The translations under genes and the position numbers were made by a program. This document shows, piece by piece, positions 5,335 through 6,011 of a DNA stretch of 23,589 nucleotides. The notes beneath the pieces were generated by a model. That model saw only the letters and a list, made by a program, of their open reading frames with translations. It ran no database searches and had not been told where the DNA came from. Numbering within the stretch: the stretch's first letter is position 1; every line of letters starts with the position of its first letter. This DNA comes from a virus. The stretch lies in the UHGV virus genome UHGV-0074613; one strand, written 5' to 3'.

Positions 5335-5362
5335 CTAAAAAAGAGCCCGCCGTGACGCGGGC
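5335..5362 (-). terminator. Intrinsic terminator immediately upstream of the leftward operon
   Basis: Minus-strand reading: GCCCGC-GUCACG-GCGGGC hairpin followed by UCUUUUUU, then the SD of the 5326 gene. Confidence 0.6.
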
Positions 5363-5585
5363 GAAGAAGATTTTTCAAATTTAACCAGAACGAATCGTCG
5401 TCTCCTTTCTGGTTGAGATGGCGTTATTACCATCACCAAGCGCTCAAGAAACGCTTGAGGCTGGCCACTATGTCAGACACTGCAATGACTGACGTCAGTT
5501 CTCCACACAACTGGAAGCGCACTCATGAGTTTGAATTTAACGACACCGCCTGTTTAGAGAACGGTGAGTGCGCTTTCATGTTGTG

Positions 5586-5630
5586 TAAAAAGGGCGGTAC
5601 CGGACTTCATGGGATGGTATTGGTACCGCC
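5586..5630 (-). terminator. Putative tRNA terminator
   Basis: 9-bp inverted repeat GGCGGTACC/GGTACCGCC with 20-nt loop, followed on the minus strand by CUUUUUA; about 35 nt downstream of the tRNA 3' end. Confidence 0.45.
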
Positions 5631-5665
5631 AAGACTACACACAGCTACATCTCTTCACTGAGATA

Positions 5666-5741
5666 TGGTGAGGCATACAGGATTCGAACCTGTGACCTAC
5701 GGCTTAGAAGGCCGCTGCTCTATCCACTGAGCTAATGCCAC
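5666..5741 (-). tRNA. tRNA-Arg (anticodon UCU)
   Basis: Manual cloverleaf: acceptor GUGGCAU/AUGCCUC (one U-U mismatch at 2:71), D-arm GCUC/GAGC, anticodon stem GCGGC/GCCGU with loop CUUCUAA (UCU), T-arm ACAGG-UUCGAAU-CCUGU, discriminator A, encoded CCA. Confidence 0.85.
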
Positions 5742-5819
5742 AACGGTAAGAGCATTTGTCGAGGACTCTTGCGAACCCGGAGACTCGATCACCTACAAAT
5801 GCTCTTGCCTGTTGTGTCC

Positions 5820-5860
5820 TCGAAAAAGATGGCTGTCACAAAGTGAGGGAAGTGACAGCC
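5820..5860 (-). terminator. Hairpin plus U-tract (terminator-like) between putative PL and the tRNA
   Basis: GGCTGTCAC/GTGACAGCC 9-bp stem, 12-nt loop, followed on the minus strand by AUCUUUUUCG. Confidence 0.4.
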
Positions 5861-5918
5861 ATTACAGGATACCGAGGCTTCACCAGATGACCGGGTTGTA
5901 TTGCCATCTGATGAATAG

Positions 5919-5948
5919 ACTATAGCTACTTTAAGTAGATAAATGCAA
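5919..5948 (-). promoter_or_regulatory. Putative leftward early promoter (PL-like) with embedded operator
   Basis: Minus strand: -35 TTGCAT (5943-5948), 18-bp spacer, -10 TATAGT (5919-5924). The 13-bp palindrome CTACTTTAAGTAG (5926-5938) lies in the spacer and matches the cI-cro operator at 12/13. Confidence 0.45.
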
Positions 5949-6011
5949 CAACAAAAAGTAGAAAAAATTATCTTTTTGGTTGTTTTTCTGACGCGAGGTA
6001 GGTTTTTTATG

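Follow-up and report, generated by a model that had tools for sequence, protein, structure and literature searches.

Introduction

The small RNA DicF of the Qin prophage of E. coli K-12 derives from a polycistronic transcript that starts at dicBp (Ragunathan et al., bioRxiv 10.1101/2023.04.14.536235, confirming Faubladier et al. 1990). The dicBF operon is laid out as dicBp, ydfABC, an RNase III hairpin, dicF with its terminator, and dicB, which is located beyond the DicF terminator. RNase III makes the 5´ end of a 190-nt DicF species (bioRxiv 10.1101/2023.04.14.536235, citing Faubladier 1990), and RNase E gives a 53-nt form; the same preprint found no further internal promoter in the operon and does not describe an N-type factor for it. 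The title of Faubladier 1990 attributes the generation of DicF partly to transcription termination. In HK022, an N-less lambdoid phage, the putL RNA forms two stem-loops just downstream of the leftward promoter PL, with G35 between them (PMC9378689). How early transcription gets past terminators in lambdoid phages that have neither N nor put is an acknowledged gap, for which a 2025 survey only speculates about put (PMC12315714). Here we analyze the leader between PL and the first left-operon gene in a 23,589-nt stretch of the virus genome UHGV-0074613. This whole stretch, which we call the window, is a segment of an N-less lambda-like (lambdoid) prophage that runs from int to the head genes.

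An earlier reading of the same DNA, made from its letters and referred to below as the sequence-only reading, had drawn attention to the terminators in this leader. The explanation that we favour, and to which we give about an even chance, is that the 590 nt from PL to the first gene consist of three noncoding-RNA cassettes in tandem, that polymerase partly reads through their moderate terminators, and that this array attenuates and insulates the left operon.

Results

Three terminators, two long hairpins and a tRNA separate PL from the left operon

The features of the leader, together with the terminator that precedes PL on the same strand, are listed here.

6020-6037, minus strand: intrinsic terminator that closes the cI (PRM) transcript and precedes PL; 7-bp stem, U8 tail, -14.9 kcal/mol
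5919-5963, minus strand: PL and operator OL1; -35 TTGCAT at 5948-5943, 18-nt spacer, -10 TATAGT at 5924-5919
5951-5963: half-site-like AAGTAG copy, beside PL
5926-5938: OL1 palindrome CTACTTTAAGTAG, 13 bp, within the PL spacer
5915-5879, minus strand: 5´ stem-loop of 13 bp with an 11-nt loop, at or next to the predicted transcription start
5862-5822, minus strand: first terminator, T1; 11-bp stem at 5862-5829, 12-nt loop, CUUUUUC tail, segment z -6.6
5816-5739, minus strand: first long hairpin, LH1; 12-bp perfect stem extended by CACAAC/GUUGUG
5741-5666, minus strand: tRNA-Arg(UCU) with encoded CCA, found by ARAGORN; Rfam tRNA score 70.5 bits
5645-5586, minus strand: DicF-like element with the second terminator, T2, GUCUUGGCGGUACC...GGUACCGCCCUUUUUA; 9-bp stem at 5630-5593, U-tract at 5591-5587
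5585-5506, minus strand: second long hairpin, LH2; z -5.1
5505-5363, minus strand: conserved structured segment; UGGAGAAC is followed by a 5-bp hairpin (loop UUGCAG) and three further hairpins
5362-5336, minus strand: third terminator, T3, GCCCGC-GUCACG-GCGGGC; six G-C pairs at 5362-5345, then UCUUUUUU at 5344-5337
5006-5335, minus strand: first left-operon gene with its Shine-Dalgarno sequence, AGGAGG at 5336-5331 and ATG at 5326

The OL1 palindrome CTACTTTAAGTAG recurs at OR, between cI and cro (6776-6788 and 6799-6811), and because this operator palindrome is common to OR, PL is the CI-controlled leftward promoter. It is also the sole sigma-70 consensus match of at least 8/12 that a promoter scan found on the minus strand of 5300-5960, and its transcription start is predicted at about 5912. 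The PL-like promoter that the sequence-only reading had placed at about 5919-5948 is therefore real as a sequence element, at 5948-5919 and with an OR-type operator in its spacer. The same reading had counted three hairpin/U-tracts and a tRNA ahead of the left operon. All of them are on the minus strand, with small corrections to their coordinates. The long hairpin described there, with its 12-bp perfect stem, was confirmed by folding and extended to 5816-5739, and the third U-tract indeed abuts the Shine-Dalgarno sequence of the first gene, UCUUUUUU standing directly before AGGAGG. LH2 was not listed in that reading.

The 589-nt leader from PL to the first gene folds with z = -8.1. T1, T2 and T3 each consist of a G+C-rich stem-loop followed by a U-tract on the transcribed strand, as expected of intrinsic terminators. 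When sites with a stem of at least 7 bp, a loop of at most 20 nt and a U-tract were counted, the leader held two (T1 and T2), as against 0.03 +/- 0.16 in 1000 dinucleotide shuffles, none of which reached two. T2 has a CUUUUUA tail and a 20-nt loop (z -4.1). T3, with its 6-bp stem, was recovered by a standard terminator scan; it folds at -14.2 kcal/mol (z -3.7), and its U-tract runs straight into AGGAGG. From the cI stop codon to the left end of the window, the scans picked up three further terminator-like sites on the leftward strand: the cI terminator (6037-6020), a site that follows int (38-15), and a weak match with 5 pairs inside int.

Both ARAGORN and the Rfam covariance model recognize the cloverleaf and anticodon of tRNA-Arg(tct), whose 5´ end is overlapped by the last 3 nt of the basal GUUGUG of LH1. 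The tRNA of the window has 76 nt and, by eye, a U2-U71 mismatch in the acceptor stem, where the 77-nt tRNAs of relatives have U-G. AGA makes up 11.6% of the Arg codons over all window genes, and the 24 Arg codons of int include 7 AGA and 3 AGG; this use of AGA and AGG, in int among others, gives a co-transcribed tRNA-Arg(UCU) a rationale. A plus-strand ORF at 5413-5661, which is without a family match and overlaps T2, was set aside as spurious.

The elements recur in varied combinations in related prophages

In the E. coli prophages L001, L003, L004 and L006-L009, the same kinds of element occupy the region from the CI-type repressor gene to the first left gene, in varied combinations. A search of IMG/VR with the pattern GTCTTGGCGGTACC...GGTACCGYCCTTTTTAC found the T2 element in at least 120 viral contigs, and wherever the context was examined it lay between the immunity region and the first left gene. 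Upstream of T2, 124 loci had enough sequence to be classified: 26 have tRNA-Arg(UCU) in the same position as the window, 83 have a ~200-nt STnc100-like element, and 15 have neither. On the 3´ side of T2, an LH2-type hairpin and the string GGAGAA are present in 123 of 125 loci. T3-like terminators are rarer (8 of 122 related loci). T3, the Shine-Dalgarno sequence and the first gene are kept in L001 and L006, with variation in the loop; in L006, the T3 block lies between two genes of one operon. Across segment 5505-5363, alignment with L001 and L006 gave 80% mean column identity and many invariant columns, with no conserved promoter motif.

The PL-proximal part of the leader is modular in its own right. 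The T1 module, comprising the 5´ stem-loop, AGCCUCGGUAUCCUGUAAUGGCUG and the T1 hairpin with U5 (AGCCUCGGUAUCCUGUAAUGGCUG.CAC...GUGGCAGCCAUCUUUUU), occurs in 13 IMG/VR contigs and in L003, every copy just 3´ of a PL-like promoter and with three operator types represented. The 3´ arm of the 5´ stem-loop, UCAUCUGGUGA, is likewise kept just 3´ of PL-like promoters that have three different operator sequences. Among the copies, the T1 stem shows one compensatory change, from U-A to C-G, and the U-tracts are strictly conserved in all. Exact-pattern searches for T1 returned no match.

In other relatives, a type B leader, GCGAACAGGCAGGACGCCCACGAAGUAGCCGCCGGUGGCGUAUGAAUGACCGGAUGAUUCGC, is found next to PL (L001 at ~7375-7450, minus strand; also L005, L006, L008, L009, L063 and L065). 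At least four immunity types are represented among the prophages in which it comes after PL, and in 76 of 129 loci T2 lies no more than 1500 nt downstream of it; this leader matched neither Rfam nor the put model described below. The T1 module and the type B leader are absent from 50,697 deposited phage genomes, bar three partial type B matches. L001, L005 and L008 have PL and its operators exactly as in the window and then diverge at about +1 into the type B leader, which places a mosaic joint at the transcription start.

We also recorded some sequences around these modules. Where no tRNA comes next, every long hairpin has on its 3´ side UGGAGAAMUNAC with a 5-bp hairpin, whose stem is variable and whose U(U/G)GCAG loop is conserved (5468-5505, minus strand, in the window, and in relatives). 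In L003 and L004, the same string, GGAGAACUAAC, provides the first gene with its actual Shine-Dalgarno sequence and spacer. The motif ACCACCGAGCCUGAUGUGGUGAAAAG, which is absent from the window, is always beside the 5´ end of opposite-strand moron genes (sieB, ECs1072 family), with sites on the minus strand at ~3285-3320 of L004, ~6545-6580 of L001 and ~2770-2800 of L009. Read on the moron strand as TTCACC-16-TAYCCT, it may be the promoter of the moron genes.

The long hairpins are related to the hairpin upstream of dicF

We aligned 19 distinct long hairpins, trimmed to their basal 26+26 nt, and found double compensatory changes in 13 of the 17 pairs of the consensus stem. On this alignment, the long hairpins form one RNA family with covariation, and the hairpin that precedes dicF in Qin is a member. 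LH2 aligns with that hairpin (L017, 865-965) as CAYAAC-GAAAGCGCA...GUCGUUAAAUU...GUGCGCUUCC-GUUGUG, and the two share the 3´ arm GUGCGCUUCCRGUUGUG. In L017, an RNA of 190 nt that shares the 3´ end of DicF would begin in the 3´ arm of the hairpin, and the RNase III-made end would fall there. The 3´ arm of LH1 and the U-tract of T2 are ~160-190 nt apart in the window, with the tRNA between them, a length similar to that in Qin. LH1 is a candidate RNase III site.

T2 shares with DicF the flank and stem (UUGGCGGUA.CAG... and CCGCCCUUUUU), not the loop. Against the Rfam DicF model (RF00039), 5592-5643 scored 18.9 bits (E = 0.48), where the gathering score is 48 and genuine DicF scores 76.7. The duplex energy of T2 with E. 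coli ftsZ from -45 to +36 was no better than with shuffled targets (z +0.95, as against -1.8 for DicF), in what is a crude test. On the Rfam score and the ftsZ pairing we rejected membership in the DicF family; the T2 RNA is DicF-like by position and architecture alone. The dicF locus of E. coli K-12, in turn, looks like a decayed example of the same design.

The part played by processing in Qin, where RNase III and RNase E make the 5´ ends of DicF (bioRxiv 10.1101/2023.04.14.536235), raises the alternative that the hairpin/U-tracts of the window scarcely terminate in vivo. They would then act mainly in processing and stability, as protective 3´ hairpins and Hfq-binding ends of processed RNAs and as a 5´ stabiliser of the first-gene mRNA, with essentially continuous transcription from PL. 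The large loops of T1 and T2, their tails that start with C, and the extreme structure of the leader (z -8.1) all fit such a role. Strong structure would protect untranslated RNA from Rho and RNase E. However, the U-tracts are strictly conserved in every T1 copy, T3 with six G-C pairs and six U has the canonical shape of an intrinsic terminator, and the title of Faubladier 1990 credits termination in part for DicF. We regard the alternative as doubtful.

N, put and nut elements were not found

The sequence-only reading had noted that no N-like antiterminator is encoded, and this was borne out. Pfam and PHROGs identified no member of the N family among the left-operon and early right-operon ORFs, an arginine-rich-window scan returned nothing downstream of PL, and the window, which spans int to the head genes, codes for no N/Nun-type protein. 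The first left-operon gene product is an acidic protein of 106 aa that belongs to PHROG 13002 (function unknown) and is not N-like. As a separate observation, L004 has an unannotated ORF directly after PL (~3860-4106, minus strand) with a zinc-ribbon motif, CPECGC, and an arginine-rich stretch, VRRERRNRSRLEK, which recalls the arginine-rich motif of lambda N; the window is without a counterpart.

A covariance model for put was built from seven put RNAs, namely HK022 putL and putR and the putL homologues of HK639, phiEt88, CobraSix, S9-5 and UPF_BP1. Their alignment has a consensus structure, with stem I GUCGAACGGCGCGAC... and a stem II with a GGAUGA/GGCAAU core, and compensatory pairs in stem II. 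Run with filters off on the window and eight related loci, the model gave a best E of 3.7, located elsewhere, and no match to a PL leader. We thus rejected an HK022-type put identity. The proposal that the two stem-loops after PL are put-like fails on this model, which was blank on the leader and on eight related leaders, and on geometry, which differs. No related copy of the PL-proximal structured module was found on the PR side.

As for nut sites, there is one boxA-like string, UGCUCUUAC (5754-5746, minus strand), which lies in the 3´ arm of LH1 and is paired within the stem. It has no copy 3´ of PR. The boxA of lambda nutR is CGCUCUUAC. No boxB-type hairpin was seen by eye, no formal boxB search having been made. 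We judged the boxA-like string incidental, and rejected rrn-like antitermination by Nus factors, since it is single, buried in a stem and not repeated after PR. Rfam searches of 5250-7200 at E-values up to 10 returned the tRNA, noise and the weak DicF match.

Several other candidates were set aside. A riboswitch-like alternative pairing between AGAUGGC in the 5´ arm and GCCAUCU in the 3´ arm of T1 exists in the window and is not kept in relatives. As for RfaH ops, the start of the T2 stem, GGCGGTAC, resembles the ops sequence, GGCGGTAG, and differs at position 8, and we treated the likeness as coincidence. Action of Q at PL was dismissed on the grounds that, by eye, the region downstream of Q shows no similarity to PL.

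These results bear on the view that polymerase is carried past T1-T3 by processive antitermination of a kind that is neither N/nut nor put, with the PL-proximal module acting in cis or an unrecognised early protein acting on the module. The position of the module speaks for it: the module starts at +1 of PL or beside it, where HK022 has putL (PMC9378689), and is kept behind PL-like promoters of three operator types, and relatives with the same PL carry an equally conserved type B leader in that place. Three serial terminators stand ahead of xis and int, and many early ORFs are without known function. N-less lambdoids are, moreover, a recognised unexplained group, for one member of which, phage LLS, put has been the subject of speculation (PMC12315714). 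On the other hand, neither the put model nor Rfam matches the module, and there is no second copy of it 3´ of PR, nor are there strong terminators there that would need one. The second stem-loop, with its conserved U-tract, looks like a terminator and not like part of an antiterminator; the alternative AGAUGGC/GCCAUCU pairing is not conserved in relatives; and the leader of L007 has a long-hairpin module and no terminators, which implies that the long hairpins are not tied to antitermination. On balance we find this mechanism unlikely. We are sceptical, too, of the specific version in which an undescribed cis RNA at the start of the PL transcript (the 5´ stem-loop/T1 in the window, type B GCGAACAGGCAGGACGCC...GGAUGAUUCGC in relatives) drives read-through of the terminators; such an RNA would be a third kind of early antitermination beside N/nut and put.

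The sequence-only reading had concluded that expression of the left operon may need antitermination. The data do not compel this, given that the module family includes the Qin dicF hairpin, with dicB beyond the terminator and no N-type factor described. In addition, a terminator scan of the right operon from PR to Q found no strong intrinsic terminator, so nothing else in the phage calls for an early processive antiterminator.

No second promoter was found in the leader

A relaxed scan and a three-way alignment with L001 and L006 revealed no -35/-10 pair between T2 and the first gene. The U-tract of T3 touches the Shine-Dalgarno sequence, so no promoter is possible 3´ of T3, and T3 must be crossed whatever promoter is used. 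This agrees with the statement of the sequence-only reading that no promoter is evident between the last terminator and the gene. Its alternative suggestion, of an unrecognised minus-strand promoter in 5363-5585, was not supported by a -35/-10 search, which gave no match of at least 8/12.

The left operon could still be driven by an unrecognised promoter in the leader or by downstream ones, such as a cII-dependent PI-type promoter for int. Consensus scans overlook promoters that depend on an activator or on a sigma factor other than sigma-70, a cII-like activator is encoded at 7102-7602, and there is a weak extended -10, TGACATAGT, at 5475-5467. Yet no site but PL reaches 8/12 on the minus strand of 5300-5960, the weak site is outside the blocks conserved with L001 and L006, and the conserved block upstream of T3 is without a -35/-10 pair. 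Any promoter would have to lie upstream of T3, which would still be crossed, and no internal promoter was found in Qin (bioRxiv 10.1101/2023.04.14.536235). We therefore consider this source of left-operon mRNA very improbable.

Genomic context

The remaining genes of the window are arranged as follows.

50-1039, minus strand: int
1044-1268, minus strand: xis-like gene, DUF4224
up to 5006-5326, minus strand: a run of small left-operon ORFs, of which 5006-5326 is the last
6054-6773, minus strand: gene for the CI-type repressor, S24/HTH
6843-7109, plus strand: cro, YdaS-type
7102-7602, plus strand: cII/CP76-like gene
upstream of Q, plus strand: replication genes, then DUF968
12842-13687, plus strand: Q antiterminator, PF03589
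after Q, plus strand: lysis genes, then head genes

The early, lysis and head modules of the prophage appear complete. The window is mosaic, and is identical to no E. coli genome and no deposited phage; a protein-anchored search for relatives of the first left gene in genome contigs and viral contigs found none. In the late region, Rfam places an int-alpA RNA match at 16277-16339 on the plus strand (41.8 bits, gathering score 35.8), with lysis genes on one side and terminase genes on the other. The early right-operon ORF at 8893-9366 (plus strand) matches the PHROG 'transcriptional activator' phrog_1324 (E = 9e-45) and, weakly and below the cutoff, Pfam PerC (19.8 bits).

Discussion

If the leader is made of leaky cassettes, as we favour, its output can be sketched as follows. 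Cassette 1 would extend from the PL start through the 5´ stem-loop to T1, the predicted 3´ end of a ~90-nt leader RNA. Cassette 2 would comprise LH1, which we infer to be cut at its base by RNase III, the tRNA-Arg(UCU), and the DicF-like RNA with its 3´ end at T2. Cassette 3 would begin with LH2, a second putative RNase III site, and give a conserved structured RNA of ~165 nt that ends at T3, with segment 5505-5363 as its predicted body. Transcription initiation or RNase III would define the 5´ ends, and moderate intrinsic terminators, partly read through, the 3´ ends.

None of the three terminators looks maximal: T1 and T2 have 12-nt and 20-nt loops and CUUUUU tails, and T3 has a 6-bp stem. 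Their efficiencies are probably such that some polymerases pass each of them without a phage-specific antiterminator, and this factor-independent read-through would mean that the left-operon mRNA, xis and int included, is made by the polymerases that leak past all three in turn. With such successive losses, the operon would be expressed late and at a low level once repression is lifted. In the lysogen, T1-T3 would be three extra barriers, behind the cI terminator, to read-through from PRM. The noncoding RNAs would be the earliest products and would be in excess, and the tRNA could serve AGA-rich phage genes, int among them.

Some considerations weigh against this explanation. If each site stopped about 80% of polymerases, fewer than 1% would reach the first gene, which may be too little for Xis and Int at induction. 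The PL-proximal module of 5´ stem-loop and T1 stays just 3´ of PL across heteroimmune phages, in a position like that of nutL or putL, and its replacement by the type B leader in relatives suggests that this position has a function beyond ending a small RNA. Even in Qin, efficient read-through is unproven, the full-length ydfABC-dicFB-ydfDE transcript not having been detected (bioRxiv 10.1101/2023.04.14.536235). The function of the T2 small RNA is assumed, its DicF score being 18.9 as against 48 bits and its ftsZ complementarity not above that of shuffled targets.

Whichever explanation is right, in at least one large group of N-less prophages, PL is separated from the left operon by a conserved array of modules that comprise noncoding RNAs and terminators. 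If read-through is leaky, the array would be a built-in attenuator and insulator that delivers a rare-codon tRNA and small RNAs right after induction. If it is not leaky, the PL-proximal modules are concrete candidates for a new RNA antiterminator.

Comparison with known systems

The closest likeness is to the dicBF operon of Qin. Both loci have a leftward promoter controlled by the repressor (PL or its equivalent), a long hairpin of one sequence family (CAYAAC-GAAAGCGCA...UGCGCUUCC-GUUGUG), a terminated small RNA that ends GGCGGUA...CCGCCCUUUUU some 190 nt past the hairpin, and protein genes beyond the terminator. All the parts of a dicBF-type architecture are therefore present in the window. 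They differ in that a tRNA-Arg(UCU) that looks functional fills the space from the hairpin to the small RNA in the window, and in that the noncoding array precedes every protein gene there, whereas in Qin it follows three. The array of the window is also flanked by T1, T3 and the PL-proximal stem-loop, and its small RNA falls below the Rfam DicF threshold and is without ftsZ complementarity.

In the relatives that have no tRNA, the slot held in the window by the tRNA and T2 is filled by an RNA resembling STnc100 (RF02076), which spans the ~200 nt from the long hairpin to the T2 terminator. In L009 this RNA scores 42.4 bits against a threshold of 47, with T2 as the 3´ end of the near-threshold match. 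The window itself has no match at E-values up to 10, the tRNA replacing most of the RNA.

Lambda N/nutL resembles the window in its conserved RNA elements directly after PL, its long RNase III-type leader hairpin and its boxA; the lambda N leader has an RNase III site. Unlike lambda, in which the small arginine-rich N protein is the first gene product after PL and nut sites with boxA and a boxB hairpin follow both PL and PR, the window has no arginine-rich N protein and, by eye, no boxB-type hairpin. HK022 put, whose RNAs follow both PL and PR and bring about processive antitermination by acting on the zinc-binding domain of the RNA polymerase beta´ subunit, is similar in that it belongs to an N-less lambdoid whose leftward transcript is structured from +1 or very near it and forms two stem-loops within ~90 nt. 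In the window, however, the stems are 16 nt apart and not one, the second is followed by a conserved U-tract, and a copy on the PR side is absent.

The leader of the window is thus a variant of the dicBF-type operon and not a new kind of system. In the material searched, what appears undescribed is the presence of a tRNA inside the cassette, the position of the array ahead of all protein genes, the PL-proximal T1 module, and the breadth of the family.

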